A stretch of 64,000 nucleotides of DNA from Armatimonadota bacterium (GTDB lineage: Bacteria > Armatimonadota > UBA5829 > DTLH01): NCBI GenBank assembly GCA_038207085.1, contig JBBRAE010000003.1, positions 1 to 64,000 on the forward strand. Direction: 5' to 3'. Positions 44,915 through 57,802 of this stretch are shown here, piece after piece. Every line of letters begins with the position of its first letter. The first letter of the stretch is position 1. A program made the translations under genes and the position numbers. Under the pieces are notes generated by a model. The model was not told where the DNA came from. It worked only from the letters and a program-made list of their open reading frames with translations, and ran no database searches.

Positions 44915-46039
44915 ATGACTGAACCACTAAGCCGATGGGAGAACGGATCTTTCTTCCAATGGGTACAAAACCATCCGCCGTCAAGCGCCCGGTCCCCCTG
45001 GGACAAGGAGCGCGTGATGTACGGATCGGGCCGAGACGCCATCCGGGCGCTCGTGAACCTCGGACGCGCAGAGCGTGGCTGGAGGCGGATGTGGGTCCCC
45101 TCGTATTTCTGCCAGTGCGTCGTAGAGTCGATCGCCCACACCGGCCTTGATGCTCTGCTCTACACCGACGGGCCGGAGGACACCTTCTGCGACTCAAGCG
45201 ACATAGACGCACGCCCCGGCGACGTCGTCCTGCGGATGAACTATTTCGGGCTTAGAACCATGCCCCAGTCCTGCCGCGCCAAGTCTCCCGGAGTCGAGAT
45301 CATAGACGACCACTCCCATGACCCGTGGTCTGAGTGGGCGTGGAAAAGCGACGCCGACTGGTGCATCGCATCGCTTAGAAAGAGCCTGCCTATCCCTGAC
45401 GGAGGCGTGCTCTGGTCGCCGAAAGCCCACGAGCTTCCTCCTGCGATCCCCGCGACTCCCGAGCACGAGGTCGCGAGCCTCAGGAAGTTTGCGGCGATGG
45501 CGCTTAAAGATATGTATCTTTCGGGCCACCACATCGAGAAGCAGACGTTCCGAGAGCTTGCCGAGTCGGGCGAATCCGGGATAGTCGGTGAGAGAATCTC
45601 GGGGATGCCGTCCTGGGTCACTGAGCTTGTGGAGCAGTTCCCGGTCGACGACTGGAGAAGCATCAGAAAAGCCAATCACCAGACGCTTTCCCGCCTACTG
45701 GTCGACGTGCCCGGGATTCGGGTGCTTCAGCCCATCTCCAGCACGCGCACGTGCCCCTTTGCGGGGATCATCGAGTGCGATTCCGATCTGCTTCGCGACC
45801 ACATCCGAGACGAGCTTGCCCGCAGGCAGGTCTACGCGACGATACTTTGGCCCATGGACGAGCCGGCCCTTCCGGGGATTCCCTCGCAGCACCTGCGTTT
45901 CAGCAGGTCGATGATGACCATTCACTGCGACATGCGCTACACCGAGCGCGACATGCGCACGATCGCCGGGTTCATCCGTGAACTCGCGACCAACGCGCCC
46001 TCGGTGTCCACCTCACCATCGCTAACCATCGGAGGATGA
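44915..46039 (+). CDS. Divergent DegT-like PLP-dependent protein
   Basis: SGRDAI, VPSYFC, NYFG, IIDDHSH, ASLRKSLPIPDGG (Lys at the expected PLP position). Confidence 0.62.
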   Translation: MTEPLSRWENGSFFQWVQNHPPSSARSPWDKERVMYGSGRDAIRALVNLGRAERGWRRMWVPSYFCQCVVESIAHTGLDALLYTDGPEDTFCDSSDIDARPGDVVLRMNYFGLRTMPQSCRAKSPGVEIIDDHSHDPWSEWAWKSDADWCIASLRKSLPIPDGGVLWSPKAHELPPAIPATPEHEVASLRKFAAMALKDMYLSGHHIEKQTFRELAESGESGIVGERISGMPSWVTELVEQFPVDDWRSIRKANHQTLSRLLVDVPGIRVLQPISSTRTCPFAGIIECDSDLLRDHIRDELARRQVYATILWPMDEPALPGIPSQHLRFSRSMMTIHCDMRYTERDMRTIAGFIRELATNAPSVSTSPSLTIGG

Positions 46040-47133
46040 GACTGTTGTCCAACTTGCAACGAATAGAGATTCTGACCACAAGAGACAAAGAGGCTTGGAG
46101 AGCGGCTCTAGACGAGATCGGCACTTACAGCTTCTACCATATGCCCGAGTTTCACCGCCTTGCGGAGATCCGCGGCGAAGGCGAGGGCATTATGCCCGTT
46201 TACCGGGAAGACGGCTTCATAGCGGCCTTTCCCATGCTGCTCAGGGACATTCAAATCCATGGGCAGTCGACCGGTATGCGCGACGCGACCTCGGTTGCCG
46301 GGTTTGCAGGCCCGATAGCGTCAATGGCCGAGCCTCCCAAGGACATCGTCAGGCGCGTACAGAGCGCCCTGCACGAGTTCCTACACGAAACAGGTGTCGT
46401 GAGCGTGTTCAGCCGGATGAACCCCGTAGCAAGCCGCCCACGCCTGTTAGATGGCATGGGAGTCTGTGTGGAGAGGGGCAACTCTCTTGTAATAGACCTG
46501 ACCGCACCGCTCGATGTCCAGCTCGCCCGCTACAAGTCCGAGCGACGCAAGAAACTTCGTCGGCTAGAAGAGACCGATCTGACCATAGACTTCGGGGGAA
46601 TGGAGCACATCGACGACTTTGTGCGCATCTTCAGCCAGACCATGGACCGCACCAGCGCCGATCACTCCTACCGGTTCGACCGCTTCTACATAGAGTATCT
46701 GCTTCGGGAGATGCCGGACGTGATGCATATCGGAGTCTGCAAGCTCGACGGAGAAGTCATAAGCGTAGTGCTCGACGGCTTCTGCGGCGGGATTGTGGAG
46801 GGGTATATCGGTGGCACGAGCACGGAGCACCGCCAGATGTCTCCCTCTACCATCCTCTACGACCGCATCCGCGTCTGGGGAACCTCAATCGGCGCGAAGT
46901 CACTGCACGTCGGCGGCGGTGTCGGGGGCCTGAAAGACACAGTTTACTCCTACAAGCTCTCATTCGGTGCAAACGAAATGCCCTACTACACCTGGAGATA
47001 TGTGGTCGATCAGCCCGCCTACGACAAGCTCTGCCGGGAAGCAGGCGGCACGCCAACCGATGACATTCACTCGGAGTATTTCCCAAATTACCGGGACCCC
47101 GAGCTTGGAGCAAGAGAAACGGTGGGGGTGTAA
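46036..47133 (+). CDS. FemAB-like GNAT acyltransferase, paralog 1
   Basis: FYHMPEFH, DATSVAGFAGP, FSRMNP, IDLT, LHVGGG, YKLSF, YFPNYR. Confidence 0.82.
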   Translation: MRLLSNLQRIEILTTRDKEAWRAALDEIGTYSFYHMPEFHRLAEIRGEGEGIMPVYREDGFIAAFPMLLRDIQIHGQSTGMRDATSVAGFAGPIASMAEPPKDIVRRVQSALHEFLHETGVVSVFSRMNPVASRPRLLDGMGVCVERGNSLVIDLTAPLDVQLARYKSERRKKLRRLEETDLTIDFGGMEHIDDFVRIFSQTMDRTSADHSYRFDRFYIEYLLREMPDVMHIGVCKLDGEVISVVLDGFCGGIVEGYIGGTSTEHRQMSPSTILYDRIRVWGTSIGAKSLHVGGGVGGLKDTVYSYKLSFGANEMPYYTWRYVVDQPAYDKLCREAGGTPTDDIHSEYFPNYRDPELGARETVGV

Positions 47134-47137
47134 CCAA

Positions 47138-48229
47138 TTGTCGCAAGCATCTTTTGAACTGCTGTCAACTGCAGAGTCGGGGCGCTGGAGGGAGACGCTC
47201 GAAGAGATCGGGGAGTATGACATTTATCACCTCCCCGAGTTCCATCGTCTGCCCGAAATGCGAGGGGAAGGCGAGGCGCTGCTGCTTGTCTACCGCGAAG
47301 GTGGCCGAGTCGCCGCGCTTCCCGTCATCATGCGCGACATAAAGCTTCCGCGTGATCTCGGAGCCCCCGTGCTCCGAGATGTGACAAGCGTCGGCGGCTT
47401 CGCAGGCCCGCTCGTCTCACCCAAAAGTGACGTCACAGAAATACGAGAAGGCTTCCAGCACGCTTTGAACGAGTTTTTCGCCGAGGCCGGTGTCATCACA
47501 GCGTATCACCGTCTGAACCCGATCATCGGCAACTTCGACCTGTTTGAAGGGCTCGGCGAGACTGTCATCCTCGGTATCACCGTGGCCGTGGACCTTTCGT
47601 ACTCGCCCGAGGAGCAGCTTAGTCGCTACAATCACGGGCACCTGGATGCGGTAAAACGACTGAAGAACCGCGGCGCCACATGCGAGCGGGTCGGGCCGGA
47701 GTATCTCGACGACTTCACCCAAGTCTATCACGAGACGATGACCAGAGCCGGCGCGCAGCCCGAGTACTTCTTCAAGCGGGACTACTTCGAATATTTACTT
47801 AACTCGATGCCCGGCGTGACCCAGCTTTTCATCTGCAACTACGACGGCAAAGTCATAAGCGCCGGAATCTTCTCAAAGACCGCAAATATAGTCGAGGGGA
47901 TGTACGCAGGAGGCCTGACGGAATACCTAAAGCTATCCCCGATCAAGATCTTAAACGATGCCGTTCGCGAGTGGGCAAACGAGCTTGGAGCAAAGTGGTT
48001 TCACATCGGCGGAAACGGAAGCGGCGCTCGGGACTCGCAGCACATATTCAGAAAGGGCTTCGGAGGCACGGAGCTGCCTTACGCTACATGGAGATACATC
48101 GCAGACTGCGGAGTCTACGGCGAACTCTGTGCGGAGCTTCGCCGCCGAGCAGGTGTGGACTCACCGGGAGGTTTCTTCCCCGAGTACCGCGACCCGTCCC
48201 TTGCACCCGTGCGGGAGGCTGTAAAGTAG
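47138..48229 (+). CDS. FemAB-like GNAT acyltransferase, paralog 2
   Basis: IYHLPEFH, DVTSVGGFAGP, YHRLNP, VDLS, FHIGG, FRKGF, FFPEYR; TTG 47138. Confidence 0.82.
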   Translation: MSQASFELLSTAESGRWRETLEEIGEYDIYHLPEFHRLPEMRGEGEALLLVYREGGRVAALPVIMRDIKLPRDLGAPVLRDVTSVGGFAGPLVSPKSDVTEIREGFQHALNEFFAEAGVITAYHRLNPIIGNFDLFEGLGETVILGITVAVDLSYSPEEQLSRYNHGHLDAVKRLKNRGATCERVGPEYLDDFTQVYHETMTRAGAQPEYFFKRDYFEYLLNSMPGVTQLFICNYDGKVISAGIFSKTANIVEGMYAGGLTEYLKLSPIKILNDAVREWANELGAKWFHIGGNGSGARDSQHIFRKGFGGTELPYATWRYIADCGVYGELCAELRRRAGVDSPGGFFPEYRDPSLAPVREAVK

Positions 48230-49356
48230 TGTCATTTATTGCAAATCGCGATATTGAAATACTGACTACACACGACGCGGAGCGCTGGAGCGAAACGCTC
48301 GAGCGAATCGGCGCGTACGACTTCTATCACCTGCCGCAGATACATCGTCTTGCCGAAATCGAGCGCGAGGGAGAAGCGGTGATGCCAGTCTACCGGGAAG
48401 GCGGCCACATCATCGCGTTCCCGATGCTCCTTCGCCGAATCGAAGGCTTTCCAGCGTTCGAGGGGCTGATGGACGTCTCCTCGATCTACGGCTACGCCGG
48501 TCCGCTTGCAACACCGGGGCTTCCGGCAGAAGTGCGGGACAGGTTCATCGCCGCCCTCGATGAGTTCTTCAGAGCAAGCCGAATCGTCACAGCCTTCTCC
48601 AGGCTCCACCCGATGATCGGCCAGACAGCCATGCTCACAGGTTACGGTGAAATCTCGGAGGTCGGCACGACAATATCGATCGATCTCACCAAATCCCCCG
48701 AGGAGCAGGTCGCGGGCTACCGAAAGAGCCACCGCTACGAAATCGGCAGGTTACGCAACCAGGGGTTCACCTGCAGACAGGCAGGGCCCGAGGCGCTTTC
48801 TGACTTCATCGACATCTACCACGAGTCCATGCGCGAAGTCGGGGCCGACCCCTACTACTTCTTCGAGAGAAGCTACTTCGAGTATCTTATGCGCGAACTC
48901 AGAGGGGTCATGACCCTTTTTGTCTGTGAGTTTGAAGGCCGCCCCGCGTGCGCCGCGATGTTTGCCAAGTGCGCCTCAATCGTGCAGTACCACCTCGCAG
49001 GCACACGCTCGGAGTTTAGAAAACTTGCGCCGATGAAGCTCCTGCTCGACACCGCGCGCGAGTGGGCGAACACGACCGGTGCAAGCGTGATGCACCTCGG
49101 AGGCGGCGTCGGAGCAAAGCAGGACTCGCTCTATGCCTTCAAACGGGGCTTCAGCGACCGGGAGCACACTTTCTCGGTCTGGAAACACGTCACCGCCCCG
49201 GAACTATACCGCGAACTATCCAGGGAGGCCGCCGCAGTGTCGGGAATGGAGCCCGAAAGCCCTTATTTCCCGTACTACCGGCACCCCGTTTTCGAACAAA
49301 TAGAACCAGAACTCGCCGACGCAATGATCGTTGGCGCAGAGGAGGAACGTTTGTGA
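48229..49356 (+). CDS. FemAB-like GNAT acyltransferase, paralog 3
   Basis: FYHLP, DVSSIYGYAGP, FSRLHP, IDLT, QYHLAGT, MHLGGG, FKRGF, YFPYYR; GTG 48229. Confidence 0.85.
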   Translation: MSFIANRDIEILTTHDAERWSETLERIGAYDFYHLPQIHRLAEIEREGEAVMPVYREGGHIIAFPMLLRRIEGFPAFEGLMDVSSIYGYAGPLATPGLPAEVRDRFIAALDEFFRASRIVTAFSRLHPMIGQTAMLTGYGEISEVGTTISIDLTKSPEEQVAGYRKSHRYEIGRLRNQGFTCRQAGPEALSDFIDIYHESMREVGADPYYFFERSYFEYLMRELRGVMTLFVCEFEGRPACAAMFAKCASIVQYHLAGTRSEFRKLAPMKLLLDTAREWANTTGASVMHLGGGVGAKQDSLYAFKRGFSDREHTFSVWKHVTAPELYRELSREAAAVSGMEPESPYFPYYRHPVFEQIEPELADAMIVGAEEERL

Positions 49357-50501
49357 CAACTGCGATTCTTTCAACAGAATATTGCCCCATCATCTGCCCC
49401 ACCCTGCCCGATCCCGAGGAGATGCTTGGGGTTATAGAGAAAGCCTTCGGCTCCGGCAGAGTGACCGTAGGCGAGCAGGTAGCCGCGCTTGAGGATGAAG
49501 TCTCGGCGCGAGTCGACGTGCGAAACACCATCGCCGTCTCGTCAGGGACAAGCGGGCTTATGCTGCTCATCCGCGCGCTCGGGCTCCCCGAGGGGAGCGA
49601 GGTCATCACCCCGAGCTTCACCTTCGCCGCGACAAGCCACGCGCTTCTTTGGAACGGGCTTCGCCCCGTCTTCTGCGACAGCGACCCGCAGACCTTTACG
49701 ATGGATCCCGCCTGCGCGAGAAGTCTCATAACCGAGCGCACGTCGGCGATATATCCCGTCTGCGTCTTTGGCGTCCCAGGCGATATCGCGGCCTACCAAA
49801 CGATCGCCCAAAACTACGGGCTCGCGCTCATTTTCGACAGCGCACAGGGCATAGGGAGCACCTACCGTAGACGAGCAGTCGGAAGCTTCGGCGTGGGCGA
49901 GGTCTTCAGCCTGAGCCCGACCAAAGTAGTGACCGGCCTCGAAGGCGGGCTCGTCACAACCAATGACGATCAGCTCGCAACCCAGATACGCTACATGCGC
50001 GACTACGGCAAAGCCCCCGACGGCGAGGACATGAACTGGCTCGGGCTTTCAGCGCGAATGACCGAACTAAACGCAGCCGTCGCCCGCTGGAGCCTTGCGA
50101 GGCTTGACACCTGGGTTGCAAACCGCACAGAGATCTGTGACCGCTACCTTGAGCGACTCGGCCACCTTCCCGGCGTCAGCTTTCAGGCGATCCCGACCGA
50201 CCGGCACTCGTCGCGCAACTACATGGTAGTCCTGCTCGACCCCGCAGAGTCGCCGATCACCCGCGACGAGCTCTACCGGGCCCTAAAAAACGACGGCATC
50301 CAGACCAAGCGCTATTTCTACCCCGCGCTTCACAACCAGACGCTTTACCAGAGCGTCACGGACGGCCGCAAGCTGCCTATAGCCCAAGCGATAAGCGAGC
50401 GGAGCATCGCAGTGCCGATGTACTCGCACATGCCACTTGAGACGGTCGAGGCTATCTGCGACCGCATCGTCGCGCACTTTGAGCAGGTGGACGCACTATG
50501 A
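49353..50501 (+). CDS. DegT/DnrJ/EryC1/StrS family sugar aminotransferase
   Basis: VSSGTSGL, TPSFTFAAT, FDSAQG, FSLSPTK..GLEGG, RMTELNAA; GGAGG before GTG 49353. Confidence 0.93.
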   Translation: MTTAILSTEYCPIICPTLPDPEEMLGVIEKAFGSGRVTVGEQVAALEDEVSARVDVRNTIAVSSGTSGLMLLIRALGLPEGSEVITPSFTFAATSHALLWNGLRPVFCDSDPQTFTMDPACARSLITERTSAIYPVCVFGVPGDIAAYQTIAQNYGLALIFDSAQGIGSTYRRRAVGSFGVGEVFSLSPTKVVTGLEGGLVTTNDDQLATQIRYMRDYGKAPDGEDMNWLGLSARMTELNAAVARWSLARLDTWVANRTEICDRYLERLGHLPGVSFQAIPTDRHSSRNYMVVLLDPAESPITRDELYRALKNDGIQTKRYFYPALHNQTLYQSVTDGRKLPIAQAISERSIAVPMYSHMPLETVEAICDRIVAHFEQVDAL

Positions 50502-51631
50502 GAAGCATTTTCACACTAATAATGATCGCACTTGCCACACTGCCCGCGCTTGCCGCCGATACGCCGGTCTACCAGGTCGGCCCCGAGGATGTGATCGGCG
50601 TAGTAGTCGCGCGTCACCCCGAGTTCTCCGGCGACTACACCATCCCCGTCGACGGCACGCTGACGCTTCCCGGCGCGGGACGAATCACCGCGGCAGGCAA
50701 GACACTTGCCGAAATCTCAGGCGAGGTCACCGACCGCTTGAGCGAACGAATCAAGGCCCCCGAGGTCACGGTATCGCTTCGCACAGCCCGAATGCAGCGG
50801 GTTTACGTGCTCGGCGCGGTGCACACCTCTGGGCTCTACGACCTGAAACCCGGCTGGAGAATCACCGAAGCGCTCGCCGCAGCGGGTGGAATCGCGGGCG
50901 GCATCGAGACGTCCGATTGCTCGGCATGTATCCTGCGGGCATCGACCGGCAAGCGCGAGACCTACCGCCTCGCCGATATCCTGCGCGGCCAGTCGAGCGC
51001 CGACACGCTTCTTCAGACCGGCGACGTAGTCACGATCGACGCCGACGAAACAGTGCCCGTATACGTCACCGGCAGGGTGAAAAACCCCGGCATCTACAGG
51101 CTCCGAAAAGACAGCGCGGGAGTGGTCGAAGCGATTACGCTCGCCGGTGGAGCCCTTGAAGACGCGGCCCTTGGCAAAGTCACAGTGGCCCACATCGACG
51201 GCAAGAACGAGACCGTCAACGCGGCGGGAGCGATCCTCGACGGAGGCCCCGCGCCCAAGGTCGAGATCAAAGCCGCGGACATGATCACCGTTCCGGCTGA
51301 GACCTCCCGCATCGCCGTCCTGGGAAACGTGAGTCAGCCCGGCTTCTTCCCGATCAGAGAGAACCAGAAGCTGACCCTCACCGACGCAATCGGACTCGCC
51401 CGTGGCGCAGACCCCCGCACAGGGAAACTGAGCGAAATCGCCGTCGTGCGCACGGATAACGGCAAACAGCAGAGGCTCGTCTTTGACCTCAGCAAGTTCC
51501 TGAAGACCGGGGACGCAAGTCAGAACCCTGAGCTCAAAGCCGGAGACGTGATCTTCGTGCCGAGGTCCAACAAGATCAACTGGGACTCGATCATGGGCTC
51601 GTTGCCGCTGGTCGGACTGTTTACAAACTGA
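50498..51631 (+). CDS. Wza/OPX polysaccharide export protein with SLBB domains
   Basis: YQVGPEDVI..DGTLTLP..G, repeated VYVLGAV..G.Y / VYVTGRVKNPG / IAVLGNVSQPG, GDVIFVP. Confidence 0.9.
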   Translation: MRSIFTLIMIALATLPALAADTPVYQVGPEDVIGVVVARHPEFSGDYTIPVDGTLTLPGAGRITAAGKTLAEISGEVTDRLSERIKAPEVTVSLRTARMQRVYVLGAVHTSGLYDLKPGWRITEALAAAGGIAGGIETSDCSACILRASTGKRETYRLADILRGQSSADTLLQTGDVVTIDADETVPVYVTGRVKNPGIYRLRKDSAGVVEAITLAGGALEDAALGKVTVAHIDGKNETVNAAGAILDGGPAPKVEIKAADMITVPAETSRIAVLGNVSQPGFFPIRENQKLTLTDAIGLARGADPRTGKLSEIAVVRTDNGKQQRLVFDLSKFLKTGDASQNPELKAGDVIFVPRSNKINWDSIMGSLPLVGLFTN

Positions 51632-51647
51632 AAGGGCGCCTACGCAG

Positions 51648-53828
51648 ATGATAATACGAAGAAACGATTTCCAGATTCAGCGCGTGCAGGAACCGAGTCA
51701 GACCATTCCTGAAGTATGGACGCCTCGGGAGCGCGAGGTTATGAGTATGAACGACTTTTCCGCGATGCTCAGGCGCAGAATCCTCACCATAGTCGTCGTC
51801 GCGGCAGTGATACTTGGCGCGGGAGTATACTACACGCTGACCAGGCCGCCGATATATGAATCGACGGCAAAGATGATGGTCATTACACCAAAGAATACCG
51901 CGGCAGTCGTAGGCGATGGCAGGCTGATAAGCGACCTTGAGGCCCTGAAGGGCGCAAGAAACGCCGACACTCAGGTCGAAATCATCACAAGCCCCGATAC
52001 CATCCAGGTCGCGGCCAAGTTGATCCCCGAAGACATCCGAAAGTACGGACTCGGCGGGACCGAGGTGCCGCCATGGGCCTATCGGGTCGTCAAGCGAAAG
52101 GAATCGGATATCATCACAGTGACAGGCAGGGCCTACACCCCCGTTGCTGCGGTTCAGATCGCAGAAGCGCTGATCAAGGCGCACTTCCAGAAGGACCTGG
52201 AGCGCAACCGACTGGCAACAAAACAGGCCCGCCAATACGCTGAGAACGAGATGCTCTCGGCCAAGAACGAGCTCTCCGCTGCGCGGATCCAACTTGCCCA
52301 GTTCAAGACCGTCACGGGTCTCTACGCACCTGAAACGCAGATGAACGCCTCAGCCGAGCGCATGACGACGCTCAACGACGAGCTCTCAGGCGCCCACGCC
52401 GACGTAGAAGCCGGACGAAGACAGATGGCCACGCTCCGCTCGCAGCTTTCCGGGCAGAGCGAAACGGTAGTGTCGGGCACCGTCGTCACTGACAACCCGC
52501 AGTTTACAGCCGCAATGAACAGAATCGACGCACTCCAGAGCGAACGGGCGCAACTGATACAGGAGTTCACCCCCACAAGCCGCGAGGTGCAGACGATCAA
52601 CGACCGCGTCCGGCGCGAAGAGGCAAGGCTGCGAAGCATCGCAAAGACGACGGTAAGTTCCGAGCAGATGGCGCGCAACCCTGTCCGGGAGAACGTAACC
52701 AACCGCTACATTGAGACGCTTGCAGCATACTCCGCCGCAACCGCCAGAATGAACGCGCTCGAACGCCAGGTGAGTCAAGGAAAACGGGCAGTCACGAGCC
52801 TGCCCGAACACGAACGCCAGCTGAACGAGCGCCAGCAGAATGTCCAACTTCTTCAGAGCAGGTACGAGTCGCTTTCAGGCAACTATCACACGCTGCTCCT
52901 AAATGAGCAGTCAATCATGCCAAGCGGTATGAAGTTCGCAAATGCGGGGTTGCCGACCAAGGCATCGTACCCGAACAAAATCGCAAACACCCTGTTCTTT
53001 ATGATCCTGGGCATCGCGTTCGGCATCCCCGTGGCGATCCTCGCCGAACGAAGGGACAGCCGCCTGCACGACCAAAACGTGATCGACCGCTCGACGGGGC
53101 TCCCGTCGCTTTCCGTGATCCCAAGGGCAAAGGCCGACTCCGTCCACATACGTGATGGCTCAAGCGCCGACGGAGCTACCATAGAGAGCTACCGGATACT
53201 GCGAAACAACATCCTCTTCGCATCAGCCGGAGATCACTTGAAAGTCCTTGCAGTCACAAGCCCCGGACGGGGTGAAGGCAAGTCGACAACCACAATGAAC
53301 CTAGCCGCGACAATGGCAATGGAAGGCAAACGCGTCCTGATGGTCGACGCCGACCTCCGCCGCCCGTCGCTCCACCGAGTGCTTGGAGTAAGCCGCGAAA
53401 AGGGCCTGACAGGCGTGATCGGCGGCAATGTGGCGCTTGAGGACGCGATAGTCGAAACCAAGACATCAAACGTCTTCCTGCTCCCGGCGGGGCCATCATG
53501 CCAGAACCCGGGCGAAACTCTGAACTCCGCACCAAGTCGCGAGCTATTCCGAAAACTTTCGGGGATGTACGACCTGGTCCTGGTCGACTGCCCGCCGAGC
53601 ACGGGGTTATCAGATGTGCAGATCATCTCGACGCTTTCAGACGCAGTGCTGCTGGTCGTATCGATGCACCAGTCGCTTCGCCCGCAGCTTGAGATCACCC
53701 TGCAGACACTCGCCCGAGCAGGCGCGCCGCTCATAGGAACGGTACTCAACCGTGTGGACATACGGTCTAGCGATTACTGCTACTACTACTCCCAAGACGA
53801 GTATAAACAGGACAACGAACAGAGCTAA
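51648..53828 (+). CDS. wzc: Wzc-type polysaccharide co-polymerase / tyrosine autokinase
   Basis: ESYRILRNN, TSPGRGEGKSTT, DADLRRP, VLVDCPP, C-terminal Tyr cluster DYCYYYSQDEY. Confidence 0.92.
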   Translation: MIIRRNDFQIQRVQEPSQTIPEVWTPREREVMSMNDFSAMLRRRILTIVVVAAVILGAGVYYTLTRPPIYESTAKMMVITPKNTAAVVGDGRLISDLEALKGARNADTQVEIITSPDTIQVAAKLIPEDIRKYGLGGTEVPPWAYRVVKRKESDIITVTGRAYTPVAAVQIAEALIKAHFQKDLERNRLATKQARQYAENEMLSAKNELSAARIQLAQFKTVTGLYAPETQMNASAERMTTLNDELSGAHADVEAGRRQMATLRSQLSGQSETVVSGTVVTDNPQFTAAMNRIDALQSERAQLIQEFTPTSREVQTINDRVRREEARLRSIAKTTVSSEQMARNPVRENVTNRYIETLAAYSAATARMNALERQVSQGKRAVTSLPEHERQLNERQQNVQLLQSRYESLSGNYHTLLLNEQSIMPSGMKFANAGLPTKASYPNKIANTLFFMILGIAFGIPVAILAERRDSRLHDQNVIDRSTGLPSLSVIPRAKADSVHIRDGSSADGATIESYRILRNNILFASAGDHLKVLAVTSPGRGEGKSTTTMNLAATMAMEGKRVLMVDADLRRPSLHRVLGVSREKGLTGVIGGNVALEDAIVETKTSNVFLLPAGPSCQNPGETLNSAPSRELFRKLSGMYDLVLVDCPPSTGLSDVQIISTLSDAVLLVVSMHQSLRPQLEITLQTLARAGAPLIGTVLNRVDIRSSDYCYYYSQDEYKQDNEQS

Positions 53829-53898
53829 AACTCACTTTGGGTGATCAATATATACTGCTGACGTGACAACACTTGTTTGATGGGGTAATGCTAAGGGG

Positions 53899-55941
53899 TT
53901 GATCAAACTGCCACTCGCCCGCAGTACAGAACAAAAACATACCCTTAGCGATGGAGGTCCGAGGAAGATCGTGGGACATAAGTCACGAATCCTTAAGTTA
54001 AGGCTGCGCGGCCCGGTAATAGCGCTAGTCATCGCCGACGTATTGGCGCTCGCCTTCTCCATCCTGGCGGCGCTGCTGCTTCGGTTCGACGGTGCCACAT
54101 GGCCCGATGTCTACAACCGCTACGTGGGAAACCACCTGACAAGTATGCCATTTGTCGCCGCCTTCTATATCGGCGCACTGGCAGTGTTTCGGATGTACAA
54201 ACGCGCGTGGCGGTTCACGAGCCTCGACATGCTCTGGGACGTGATCGGCGCAAACACCGCTGGTGTCGCCGGGATGATGGTCATCCAGATGATGTTCGAC
54301 GGCAGCCATTTCCCGCGCTCTGTGCTCGTGATGGTATGGGGGTCAGCTATCATGCTGACCGGCGGAATCCGGGTGTTCCTTAGGATGATGAGCGTGCTGC
54401 ACAAATACTCGGGCAAAGAGGACCGCCCATCAGTGCGGGAAAGCCGCCGCAAGCGGGTGGTTATCCTCGGCGCCGGGGCCGACGGCGCAAGCATCCTGCG
54501 AGCTATCCGGGAAGACCCGTACCTGGAATACGACGTGATCGGTTTTCTCGATGAAGACCCCAACAAGATGGGCGTCTACATCAGCAACGTGCGGGTAATC
54601 GGTTCGCTTGAGATGCTAAAGAAACTCGCAGACGATGGGACGATCGATGAGGTCATCGTCGCCCTTCCCGAAGACGCCTGTGAGAAGGTCCGCGAGTATG
54701 TCCTTGATTGCCGGGGCAAGCGCGTGGCGGTGAAGAAGGTGCCCCAGCTCCGGGATACGCTGATCGGCAAGACTGCGATCCAGATGGTCGACTTCGGGAT
54801 CGAGGACTTACTCGGACGCGCGCCGGTGAGCTCGAGCGTCGCGACCATTGGGACCTATATCAAGGGCAAACGCGTGCTTGTGACCGGTGCGGGCGGGTCG
54901 ATCGGCTCAGAGCTCTGCCGACAGATCATGCAGATGGAACCGGCGGCGCTGATCCTTCTCGGTCACGGTGAAAACTCGATCCACCTCGTCCACCAGGAGC
55001 TTCAGGCAAGGTACCGCAACCTGGCGGAGCGACTGAGCTACGTAATCGCAAGCGTATCGAACAAGAACCGAATCGACCAGGTGTTCAAACAGCACCGACC
55101 CAACATCGTCTTTCACGCGGCGGCCCACAAACACGTGCCCATCATGGAGCTGAACGAGCAAGAGGCCGTCAGCAACAACGTCCTTGGCACGCATCACGTG
55201 GCCGACGCCTGCGGGCGCTACGGAGTCGATCGGATGGTGCTGATCTCCACTGACAAGGCCGCCGACCCCTGCAGCATTATGGGGGCGACGAAGTGGCTTT
55301 GCGAGGAAGTGCTGCGCGCGTCTTCGCACATCCACCAGGGCACCTCCTACGTCGCAGTGCGGTTCGGCAACGTGCTTGGCAGCCGGGGGAGTGTTGTCCC
55401 CGTGTTCAAAGAGCAGATACGGCGCGGCGGGCCGGTGACTGTGACTCACCCGGACATGACCCGCTACTTTATGACCATTCCTGAGGCTGTTCGGCTGGTC
55501 CTTCAAGCGGGAGGAGTGGGCAGGTCCGGTGAGCTGTATCTGCTCGACATGGGGAACCCTGTAAGAATAGTCGACCTCGCGCGGGATATGATCCGGCTCC
55601 ACGGCTTCGAGCCCGATGTCGATATCGAGATCGCCTACACGGGAATGCGCCCAGGTGAGAAGCTTCACGAGACTCTGACGGCGTCCGGCGAGGACATTCA
55701 CCGCACCAACTGGGAGGGCCTCTACCACATCAAGCGCCCGCAGTACTTCGTGACCGACGAAGTCTTGGACGCGCTGGTGCATCTGGAGCGGGCAACATCA
55801 AGAGGGTCGTCAGCGGACGTCCGCCGACTGCTGAATCAGCTGATCCCAAGCCAGTGCACTGTCCCCGTCACAGAGTTACAGCAAGAGCTCGAAGAGAGCC
55901 TGGAACACGAGGGAGAATCCCCTCTGCGTTACCACATGTGA
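53899..55941 (+). CDS. Membrane-bound UDP-sugar 4,6-dehydratase (PglF/CapD/WbpM family)
   Basis: 4 N-terminal TM segments; LVTGAGGSIGSELCRQ, HAAAHKHVP, ISTDKA, VRFGNVLGSRGSV, MTRYFMTIPEA, GMRPGEKLHE. Confidence 0.93.
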   Translation: MIKLPLARSTEQKHTLSDGGPRKIVGHKSRILKLRLRGPVIALVIADVLALAFSILAALLLRFDGATWPDVYNRYVGNHLTSMPFVAAFYIGALAVFRMYKRAWRFTSLDMLWDVIGANTAGVAGMMVIQMMFDGSHFPRSVLVMVWGSAIMLTGGIRVFLRMMSVLHKYSGKEDRPSVRESRRKRVVILGAGADGASILRAIREDPYLEYDVIGFLDEDPNKMGVYISNVRVIGSLEMLKKLADDGTIDEVIVALPEDACEKVREYVLDCRGKRVAVKKVPQLRDTLIGKTAIQMVDFGIEDLLGRAPVSSSVATIGTYIKGKRVLVTGAGGSIGSELCRQIMQMEPAALILLGHGENSIHLVHQELQARYRNLAERLSYVIASVSNKNRIDQVFKQHRPNIVFHAAAHKHVPIMELNEQEAVSNNVLGTHHVADACGRYGVDRMVLISTDKAADPCSIMGATKWLCEEVLRASSHIHQGTSYVAVRFGNVLGSRGSVVPVFKEQIRRGGPVTVTHPDMTRYFMTIPEAVRLVLQAGGVGRSGELYLLDMGNPVRIVDLARDMIRLHGFEPDVDIEIAYTGMRPGEKLHETLTASGEDIHRTNWEGLYHIKRPQYFVTDEVLDALVHLERATSRGSSADVRRLLNQLIPSQCTVPVTELQQELEESLEHEGESPLRYHM

Positions 55942-55995
55942 GAGCGAGACGGTCCTCCGGGGTATATAACTAATGAGTTTCAATGATTGTTACTA

Positions 55996-56038
55996 CCCCT
56001 CACCCTCACCCTCTCCCCCTAAGGGAGAGGGTGAGGGG
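55996..56038. repeat. CCCTCACCC-type palindromic (REP/BoxC-like) element
   Basis: Perfect 15-bp stem CCCTCACCCTCTCCC (56003-56017) / GGGAGAGGGTGAGGG (56023-56037). Confidence 0.7.
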
Positions 56039-56366: not shown

Positions 56367-56408
56367 TTCGTGTATTGGCCGGGTAAAAACCGGCCAATAC
56401 GCAATACA

Positions 56409-57737
56409 TCACTTGTGCTTAACCATCCCAAGATAGACATTCGGCACGAAGTGCGGGCTGTGCTCGGGTGTATGGCAGTCCTTGCACGCCTCGCGGATGC
56501 CTTTGGTTTCGTGCTTTGCCTTGTGGCCCGCACCGTGCGGCAGGACATCGGCGTGGCAGGACATACACTCGACCCCACCCAAGCCATCAGTCCCCTTGAC
56601 GCTCCGCTCGATCCTCCGATACATCTCGGAGTGGCATGGCAGACACTCGGGAAGCGTCTTGTTCTGCTTCTCAAGCGTGGTAAGCGCCGTCGCGTGCTTG
56701 GTCGTTTTCCACTGATCGTACTCCGCCTTGTGGCAGGACATACAGGTCTGGTAGCTGTAATAGCCTTCCTTGGGAGTCGACACATGCGTCTCAGTCGTGA
56801 TCGGACCCGGCGTCGACCCGGGGCTGATATTGACGATTCTCGGTGCCTGGAAGTCCTTGACCATCTTCAGGACATCGGCGTCCTCCGGGCAGCTTTCGTC
56901 GATGCCGACCCGTTTGTAGGTCTTCTTCTTGGTAGCACCGTTGATCTCGATGTCCACCTGTGCGATGGCGTTGCCCTGCACGCTGGTCGGGACGATCATC
57001 GTCTCGCCAACCATCTTGGGCTCTACGAGAATCATATTGCCAGTGCCGCCGAGGATGATATCCGGCGCACCGTAGCGTTTGGTGATCTTCTCGATCCACG
57101 CGTCCGACGCCACTTTGCCCTGGTCGAGCACGATCAAGACGTCCGACTTCTGCCGCGCTTCAGCGTAGACCTCATAGCGCTCTTTCAAGAGCTTATAGTC
57201 GTCGATAGCGCCATCGGGAAGCGTCCCAAATGAGACGACACCCACCTTCACCCCGCTGAGGTCGCGGATGATAAACGGCTTGGCGCCGGCCGCCTCGGGA
57301 GCGCCGAGGTTCACTACCGGCATCGACTTATCGTTCATGACCTTATAGAAACTGTCACCAAAGCGCAGGTCAGTCGGCCCGACGCCGACCGCCGAGTAGC
57401 CCATAGCTTTCAGCGCATCGATGACGACCTCAAGCTGACCCGTCTGGGTGTTGGTCATGTTGGGATAAGCGAGGTTTCCGCTTTCCACCGCAATTGTTCT
57501 GGGGTTTTCAGCTCTAAGCTTCTTTATGTAACCAGCTCGTCGAGGCAGACCGCCCGACTTGTGGCCGCCTCACCCACACGGTTCAAGCGTGCCGACCGTA
57601 TCGTTGCTCAAAATGACGGAGATTTTGGAAGGAAGCGAGCTCGCGGCATCAACCGCCCCCGCCACCCAAACAAAAGCCGCCAAAAGAGTCACGGCAAACA
57701 ACGCCCGAACCGCTGCAATAAGATATCTTTTAGTCAT
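56409..57737 (-). CDS. Probable selenoprotein: secreted UshA-like domain fused to a tetraheme c-type cytochrome (442 aa with Sec56)
   Basis: ATG 57737 is in frame with ORF 56409..57488; signal peptide; single in-frame TGA (57570-57572) in LEPCG*GGHKSGGLPRR; four CxxCH motifs (CMSCH, CLPCH, CMSCH, CKDCH). Confidence 0.85.
57539..57558 (-). promoter_or_regulatory. Bacterial SECIS-like hairpin
   Basis: GUCGGGC-GGUCU-GCC(U)CGAC starting exactly 11 nt after the UGA; apical GGUCUGC as in the E. coli fdhF SECIS. Confidence 0.75.
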
Positions 57738-57773: not shown

Positions 57774-57802
57774 AGTCTACCCACAGTTGAGTAAGATGTC
57801 AA
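57774..57802 (-). promoter_or_regulatory. Sigma70-type promoter of the selenoprotein gene
   Basis: TTGACA (57802-57797), 17-nt spacer, TAGACT (57779-57774), 36 nt upstream of ATG 57737. Confidence 0.72.

Follow-up and report, generated by a model that had tools for sequence, protein, structure and literature searches.

The window analysed here is a stretch of 64,000 nucleotides (nt) from an Armatimonadota bacterium (contig JBBRAE010000003.1 of assembly GCA_038207085.1), and on its minus strand a frame of 442 residues runs from an ATG at 57737 to a stop at 56409-56411, open except for one TGA when this codon is translated as U. Judging from the comparison with related genomes described below, the TGA is almost certainly a real selenocysteine (Sec) codon in an exported four-heme protein, and we consider it very probable that the locus is one gene for an exported UshA-like 'PCGU' selenoprotein. 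An original prediction, made from the DNA letters without database searches, had proposed that a 359-residue open reading frame (ORF) extends upstream in frame to the ATG at 57737 across a single TGA (57570-57572, codon 56). Translation confirms all of these coordinates, and the sole internal TGA (57572-57570, minus strand, codon 56) is found in the context TLEPCG-U-GGHKSGGLPRRAG.

The codon at position 56 in related genomes

A six-frame search over 41 genomes, the window's own and 40 relatives, gives a match in 35 of them. The match in the window's own genome (G000:C3:56412-57737) is the window gene itself, with one TGA inside a 455-residue open frame, and among the 26 strongest rows of the search (>230 bits) there are 20 with exactly one internal TGA and six without. 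To follow the codon itself we use the 20 best orthologous loci (L022-L041), one set made up of the window genome and 19 others that belong to its family or order. Sixteen of these loci have TGA at the aligned position and the other four (L023, L026, L029 and L030) have TGC, encoding cysteine (Cys), and the protein is conserved on both flanks. The check proposed with the original prediction, whether homologs have Cys or Sec at position 56, thus gives one or the other at all 20 loci. Full-length homologs align with the window protein over residues ~10 to 441, and in an alignment of 27 full-length proteins, which reaches down to 23-26% identity, the invariant columns include C54, G55, C56(U), G62, G63, R67, G87 and all four CxxCH heme motifs.

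In another sample from that study, a contig spans positions 57517-57726, including the TGA, with 0 differences (depth 2.3, 13 of 30 bins). The two matching sequencing runs are contigs from the one study, and the run covering the whole stretch may be the source of the window; the second-sample contig is weak independent support for the TGA. No RNA runs containing the stretch are listed.

It could be argued that the TGA is a nonsense mutation or an assembly error, and that the locus is a pseudogene or two separate genes, a 55-codon leader and the 359-residue ORF (56409..57488). Plain ORF calling does return this ORF, the database form of the protein (P0002) is identical to it in extent, and the hairpin discussed in the next section is statistically unexceptional when taken alone. 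However, the same codon is TGA in 15 other genomes and encodes Cys in four, conservation continues across it, and the export signal required by a c-type cytochrome is situated upstream of it. According to the structural model the truncated ORF would begin inside the first beta-alpha unit of the fold, and the second-sample contig has the same TGA, although at its depth and coming from the same study this last point is weak alone. We regard a nonsense mutation or error at this position as very improbable.

A SECIS-like hairpin downstream of the UGA

The UGA is followed by 11 nt, GGCGGCCACAA, and then by a 20-nt hairpin, GUCGGGCGGUCUGCCUCGAC (57558..57539; -10.4 kcal/mol). The hairpin begins exactly 11 nt past the codon, as had been predicted, and is conserved in the 16 Sec forms with one covarying pair. 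The selenocysteine insertion sequence (SECIS) of E. coli fdhF has an 11-nt spacing from its UGA, a GGUC-containing loop and a bulged U. The window hairpin shares with it a start ~11 nt past the UGA, the G and U of an apical loop that contains GGUC, and a bulged U, but the sequence of the stem is different and the bulge is here on the 3' side.

Codons 60-67, which make up the hairpin, encode x-x-G-G-L-(P/A)-R-R. The sequence GGCGGTCT (loop GGUCU) is invariant in all 16 Sec forms; the Cys forms also encode G-G-L, yet GGCGGTCT is retained in only two of the four. When 36-nt segments are folded, GGUCU(N) is apical in the minimum free energy (MFE) structure of 14 of the 16 Sec forms and of none of the four Cys forms. 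Over the 16 Sec forms (15 distinct rows), 81.9% of the cells of the 7-bp stem are paired, compared with 30.5-51.4% when the partners are slid by 1-3 columns, and none of 500 shuffles attains the observed pairing or covariation score. The covarying pair joins base 1 of codon 61 to the synonymous third base of Arg66 and is found as UA (4), GC (3), AU (2), CG (2) and GU (1), with three sequences unpaired. The codons of the G-G-L loop begin 15 nt past the UGA in 17 of 19 listed loci and in 13 of 15 Sec forms (L024 is missed by the pattern), and begin 18 nt past it in L035 and 21 nt past it in L040. A conserved loop together with covariation is the normal signature of a bacterial SECIS, and on the strength of these alignments we suggest that the hairpin acts as one.

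Several observations weigh against this assignment. Two Sec forms (L027 and L032) have an MFE structure without the GGUCU(N) apical loop, and four of the seven stem pairs are unpaired in 3 to 5 of the 15 distinct sequences, from which the stem appears to be imperfect in some lineages. When the fold of each sequence is set against 300 synonymous recodings, the fraction is <=0.1 in ten of 16 Sec forms and in one of four Cys forms, in a control that uses uniform codon choice and is rough. The hairpin of the window alone is not above chance, with z -0.55 for a 71-nt fold and z -1.41 for the 28-nt hairpin (20 of 200 shuffles as good), and an Rfam scan of the whole window at gathering score gives 0 matches. 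The support for the hairpin is comparative, since single-sequence folds are no better than shuffles.

Selenocysteine and cytochrome c machinery

The Sec machinery that a selenoprotein presupposes is all present in the window genome (83 contigs, 3.35 Mb, completeness 100%). The matches to selA (572 bits), selB (353 bits) and selD (393 bits) are all above cut-offs, as is a tRNA-Sec of 69.8 bits, which ARAGORN reports as tRNA-SeC with anticodon TCA. Cytochrome c maturation, which had likewise been proposed as something to look for, is represented by three Cytochrom_C_asm genes on contig C45. The tRNA-Sec model also matches a sequence of 80 nt (G000:C1:190335-190414, L015) with 48.4 bits against a gathering score of 47, and this is probably another long-arm tRNA rather than a second tRNA-Sec.

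In the relatives, selA is above cut-off in six of six Sec-form genomes tested (G001, G008, G013, G015, G022 and G026). The Cys-form genome G012 (97% complete) has only two selA fragments of ~26 bits (G012:C3:85386-85952), one of them with a TAA stop, and in the Cys-form genome G028 (98% complete) there is no selA match. Both tandem family genes in G012 (G012:C18:101132-103840) are without a TGA, and this genome has the look of one whose Sec machinery decayed and whose Sec was then replaced by Cys. Counting against such a scheme, the Cys-form genomes G002 and G018 retain selA, and the distribution of the gene only partly fits Sec-to-Cys replacement upon machinery decay.

Table 1. Positions of the features assigned to the putative selenoprotein gene and its upstream flank
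Feature	Position in window	Strand	Details
Full selenoprotein coding sequence	56409..57737	-	442 residues plus TGA stop 56409-56411; Sec predicted at codon 56
UGA selenocysteine codon U56, motif C54-G55-U56	57570..57572	-	E-P-C-G-U, residues 52-56
SECIS-like hairpin	57539..57558	-	7 bp, bulged U, apical loop GGUCU; codons 60-67; begins 11 nt past UGA
Putative N-terminal export signal, residues 1-31	57645..57737	-	MTKR, hydrophobic stretch, V-D-A before A32; read from sequence
UshA-like domain (N-terminal metallophosphatase fold of 5'-nucleotidases), metal site degenerate, residues ~35-300	56838..57635	-	Foldseek, profile against PDB
Cytochrome c554-like tetraheme domain, residues ~326-442	56412..56762	-	PF13435, profile matches, NF041198 positions 355-517
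CxxCH motifs at C332, C365, C391 and C418	56730-56744, 56631-56645, 56553-56567, 56472-56486	-	invariant in 27 sequences
Sigma-70-like promoter candidate TTGACA-17-TAGACT	57774..57802	-	37 nt upstream of ATG; 10 of 12 consensus matches only

The UshA-like N-terminal domain

The signal peptide and the four CxxCH motifs that had been claimed for the extended protein both have their counterparts in the translation, which has a signal-like N-terminus and CxxCH at C332, C365, C391 and C418 (Table 1). We built an AlphaFold2 (AF2) model on the 27-sequence alignment, with a predicted local distance difference test (pLDDT) score of 80.3 and a predicted template modelling (pTM) score of 0.73. Residues 2-32 form a single helix in the model, and we infer a signal cleavage site before A32 by inspection of the sequence rather than from a dedicated predictor. 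Confidence in the model is low at residues 303-322 and in the CGU loop.

Foldseek gives 5'-nucleotidases as the top matches to the model (3ivd, UshA and CD73, with E ~1e-16 to 1e-13 over ~300 columns), and a profile search against PDB gives 3ivd with E 6.4e-22, the nucleotidase alignments ending near residue 300. The UshA-like identity that had been suggested for the protein is borne out by these matches as regards the predicted fold of the N-domain. A PDB sequence search with the single protein matched OcwA alone, through the heme motifs. The N-domain resembles E. coli UshA, human CD73 and E. coli c4898 (3ivd) in its N-terminal metallophosphatase fold and in the GG.ARR segment after the first strand-loop, which is conserved with 5'-nucleotidases. 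Unlike these enzymes, the window protein has lost the metal motifs and the C-terminal nucleotide-binding domain, and has gained the Cys-Gly-Sec loop and the heme domain. It is also weakly similar in its N-domain to the thiosulfohydrolase SoxB, which has the same fold.

The motifs NDLHAH, AGD, GNHEF, IHEG and GHAH of 3ivd read NDT.G, SGN, GVGPTD, LDQG and GGTG respectively in the window protein, and in place of the dimetal ligands DxH, GD, GNH(E/D), H and GHxH we find DT.G, GN, GVGPTD, D/Q and GGTG. The C-G-U motif is situated in the loop after the first metallophosphatase motif, beside the former metal site. Because the ligand motifs of 3ivd are replaced, we propose that the N-domain is a phosphatase fold without its metal site and that it carries a new Cys-Sec pair there. 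No C-terminal 5'-nucleotidase substrate-binding domain is found, the Pfam matches on the window protein being to cytochrome families only. That the N-domain is a working 5'-nucleotidase or phosphoesterase in which the Sec is incidental seems scarcely credible, notwithstanding that its fold and best structural matches are those of 5'-nucleotidases, as the dimetal ligand motifs are replaced family-wide, the substrate-binding domain of these enzymes is missing, and contig C4 of the same genome encodes a separate canonical 5'-nucleotidase with intact motifs (NDLHG / GD / GNNEF / GGDSH).

The c554-like tetraheme domain

The C-terminal region matches PF13435 in Pfam (39.3 bits against a gathering cut-off of 20.8) and, in profile searches, cytochrome c554 (1bvb, E 6.3e-17) together with the c554-like modules of the nonaheme OcwA (6i5b), all of which supports the tetraheme cytochrome C-terminus of the original prediction as a c554-like domain. 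Of the known heme folds that of c554 is the nearest. CxxCH motifs one to three can be aligned with those of c554 from Nitrosomonas europaea (1bvb/1ft5) and of the OcwA modules (6i5b), as can the W/H signature that follows motif one. Cytochrome c554 differs in being a free-standing electron carrier, without Sec and without a fused domain.

Beyond the four proximal His, H348 and H401 are invariant and H441 is conserved at >=90% among the 27 sequences. As only these three are further conserved, there appear to be three distal His for four hemes. Under the bolder model set out below, one heme would in consequence be five-coordinate or be ligated by C54 or U56.

Relationship to the UshA-like PCGU family

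The best NCBIfam match of the window protein is NF041198 ('UshA_like_PCGU, UshA-like (seleno)protein'; E 1.3e-61, 208.7 bits). The model covers both halves of the protein, its positions 4-274 matching the N-part (109.4 bits) and its positions 355-517 the heme part (88 bits), and the nucleotidase-heme fusion is therefore part of a family already catalogued. The novelty of architecture that the original prediction implied does not stand, because NF041198 models all of it, heme domain included. Common to the family and the window protein are the P-C-G-U motif, present here as E-P-C-G-U at residues 52-56, the UshA-like N-domain, the C-terminal tetraheme region and the alternation of Sec and Cys in the same column. 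The window protein is unlike the family in that ~75 positions of the model between the domains (275-354) are unmatched and in that its score lies below the equivalog cut-off of 275 bits.

This sub-cut-off score counts against a simple assignment to NF041198, as do those of the close relatives P0008, P0019 and P0031 (176-206 bits), all of which are also under the cut-off; P0043, which is 25% identical, passes at 296.1 bits. The named database relatives of the close clade (176-209 bits) are Armatimonadota. Because of these names together with the low scores, we believe that the window protein probably belongs to a divergent, Armatimonadota-type clade of the NF041198 family, as far as sequence similarity can place it. 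The family as a whole is large, with 5658 cluster representatives at E<=0.001, 2217 at 1e-10 and 109 at 1e-30, single-domain matches included. A paralog in the same genome (contig C10, L043:934-2385, minus strand; 483 residues) has the motif S-C-N-C, four CxxCH and an NF041198 score of 262.8 bits. As this paralog is a Cys form, the family is represented in the organism by a Sec protein and a Cys protein.

The original prediction was right that UshA-like selenoproteins appear in selenoproteome surveys. The Global Ocean Sampling (GOS) selenoproteome of 2008 has 76 Sec sequences under 'COG0737, UshA-like, CxU', alongside 92 homologs with Cys (PMC2398784), and 'UshA-like protein' is tabled in a 2022 review (PMC9312934) and in a 2026 review, there with NF041198 (PMC13188914). 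The passages on the family in these papers assign it no function. On the evidence of these listings the selenoprotein family has been known since 2008 (PMC2398784), and the window gene is a divergent addition to it, which contributes a Sec member of the Armatimonadota type whose Sec/Cys series is clean, but no new principle.

Tandem duplicates of the family genes are seen at G012:C18, G022:C168, G007:C259 and G035:C5 and at L025, L026 and L040, and in G022 and G007 both tandem copies carry the TGA. Among distant relatives (P0045-P0121; P0158, P0166 and P0198), proteins of 620-675 residues, some of them named Poribacteria, have a DsbA/GILT/thioredoxin-like domain after the hemes, and others of ~1190-1207 residues have the whole unit at the C-terminus behind ~780 further residues.

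A proposed mechanism and its alternatives

We propose that SelB and tRNA-Sec, recruited by the hairpin 11 nt downstream, would decode the UGA at codon 56 as Sec, that the N-terminal signal would export the product, and that the cytochrome c maturation system would attach four c-type hemes to it. This part of the account, comprising SelB-dependent Sec insertion, export, heme attachment and a two-domain protein with Cys-Gly-Sec and four hemes, is strongly supported. The mature protein would be composed of a metal-less 5'-nucleotidase-fold domain with C54-G-U56, a low-confidence linker of ~20 residues and the c554-like tetraheme domain, from which we infer a periplasmic selenol/thiol centre wired to four hemes. 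Each element of the periplasmic Sec redox centre and four-heme chain put forward in the original prediction (Sec codon, export signal and tetraheme domain) is upheld, and the function that we assign to them below is conjectural.

In our model the four hemes would form the electron path that joins the Cys-Sec pair to redox partners in the periplasm or the membrane, and the pair would alternate between the selenolate/thiol and selenenylsulfide states. The selenolate might attack a chalcogen bond, either in a protein disulfide or in a small substrate of the periplasm such as polysulfide or another S-S / Se-S species, after which the hemes would re-reduce the Cys-Sec centre. This reductive cleavage of a chalcogen bond, which we argue largely by analogy, is put forward tentatively, as a possibility that we would not call probable. 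Taken together, the identity of the gene and this account of its mechanism are quite likely the best explanation overall.

The analogy is with MccSep/ExtKL (GSU2936-37; NF040886), a pentaheme Sec enzyme in which a Cys-ligated heme serves the reduction of polysulfide, and which provides a precedent for a Sec, a Cys and a heme chain being able to cleave polysulfide (PMC13510729). As described there, MccSep/ExtKL resembles the protein proposed here in being a multiheme c-type cytochrome of the periplasm whose single Sec is paired in catalysis with a Cys. The differences are that it has five hemes as opposed to four, and that its Sec is inside the cytochrome fold by the Cys-ligated heme, whereas here the Sec is in a separate nucleotidase-fold domain (PMC13510729). 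The NF040886 model gives 17.9 bits on the window protein against a cut-off of 250, and there are four CxxCH rather than five; the two proteins are not homologous beyond the heme motifs, and their mechanisms would be analogous in logic, not homologous.

A bolder version of the model, which we consider doubtful, is that a dead metallophosphatase scaffold holds the Cys-Gly-Sec directly against one heme of the c554-like chain, making the protein a second, independently evolved 'selenium-on-heme' enzyme that would cleave or form periplasmic chalcogen bonds (polysulfide, thiosulfate-type species, selenite or protein disulfides). Were this to be true, the UshA-like PCGU family would get a role in the cycling of sulfur or selenium or in disulfide chemistry driven by hemes. 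The centre may, in one of the families of relatives, be fed through an anion-selective porin whose gene adjoins it.

Hints at the mechanism, none of them decisive, come from the missing fourth distal His, the DsbA/GILT-like domains in relatives, the SoxB-type fold, the rhodanese gene at L039 and the porin of family f2. Weighing against the mechanism, what it assumes of the substrate, of the way in which electrons run and of the ligation of a heme by Cys or Sec is pure conjecture, and residues 51-60 of the CGU loop, with pLDDT ~56, are the least confident in the N-domain. The neighbours of the gene in the window have no relation to redox or sulfur metabolism; they encode polysaccharide biosynthesis/export proteins, NAD synthase, an M24 peptidase and an ABC transporter. 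No conserved partner gene is found across the loci of 19 relatives. The literature that we located offers no functional study of the UshA-like selenoprotein family by which to judge the mechanism, consisting, supplements aside, of survey tables and the unrelated MccSep paper only.

Electrons could instead move in the oxidative direction, with the Cys-Sec centre oxidising thiols, sulfide or a DsbA-like partner and the electrons passing via the four hemes to the respiratory chain; the protein would then be a heme-linked, DsbB-independent disulfide-forming module, or a sulfide/thiol-oxidising one. The distant members of 620-675 residues, with a C-terminal DsbA/GILT/thioredoxin-like domain after the heme domain, could be read in this way, as could the weak similarity of the N-domain to SoxB, and cytochrome c554 accepts electrons from an oxidising enzyme. 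However, domains of the GILT type are reductases, Pfam gives no thioredoxin-like domain in the window protein, and nothing in the data sets the direction of electron flow. We think the oxidative direction unlikely.

We also considered a periplasmic peroxide or hydroperoxide reductase, in which chemistry like that of glutathione peroxidase (GPx) or peroxiredoxin (Prx) would take place at the Sec, with a resolving Cys and with re-reduction by the hemes. A C-x-U pair with a nearby resolving Cys suits peroxidatic chemistry, as is established for GPx-type selenoproteins, the heme chain could stand in for the thiol reductant, and the gene is solitary, as are many stress genes. Such a function is nevertheless improbable, as Pfam and NCBIfam searches of the window protein give no peroxidase-family similarity and no regulatory or neighbourhood tie to oxidative stress is seen. 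The family, which is large, couples selenium to a heme chain and is, after MccSep, a reasonable next candidate for Sec-plus-heme chalcogen chemistry.

Gene calling, flanking sequences and neighbourhood

As had been anticipated of standard gene callers, both the plain ORF list and the protein database hold the truncated form of the gene. The former yields just the 359-residue, GTG-started ORF 56409..57488, and the database entry P0002 (359 residues; 100% identity, 81% coverage) is the same truncated version, in which both export signal and Sec centre are missing. Among the 150 best cluster representatives, about 30 also begin just downstream of the Sec position, as counted from the table of matches, which suggests that truncation of family members is systematic. 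The 359-residue call should be corrected to the full-length selenoprotein; automatic pipelines are unlikely to rescue the gene because the clade scores under the NF041198 cut-off.

The TTGACA-17-TAGACT sequence predicted ahead of the ATG is present at 57802..57774 on the minus strand, as a consensus match, and a consensus scan of the 2.1-kb region gives three promoter-like sites against 0.8 expected. Just past the selenoprotein stop, between two convergent genes, there is a perfect 11-bp inverted repeat, GUAUUGGCCGG / CCGGCCAAUAC (56373..56400), with a folding energy of -21.2 kcal/mol and z -5.35 (0 of 200 shuffles as good). Its probable role is that of a bidirectional terminator or of a stabilising hairpin, and a consensus terminator scan does not list it because it has no T-run.

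A polysaccharide biosynthesis and export cluster (46000..56000, plus strand) ends convergent to the selenoprotein gene. It contains genes for a DegT-type aminotransferase, two FemAB/GNAT-like proteins, a Wza-like exporter that has SLBB domains, a Wzz plus tyrosine-kinase-like ATPase, and a Polysacc_synt_2 dehydratase. Recurrent neighbours in the relatives are limited to tandem paralogs, joined in one family by porin-like and NlpC/P60 genes. At five loci of this family, f2 (L030, L031, L032, L034 and L035), the gene directly upstream has the same orientation and encodes an exported protein of 371-385 residues with ...TGF at its end. This protein is weakly like phosphate-selective porin O/P (E 3e-4, 20.6 bits against a cut-off of 20.9), and its copies are 55% identical between L031 and L035 and 81% between L031 and L034. 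The NlpC/P60 gene lies downstream at four of the five porin loci. A homolog of the porin-like gene in the window genome is unlinked, on contig C42, and at the ortholog L039 a rhodanese gene adjoins the selenoprotein gene.

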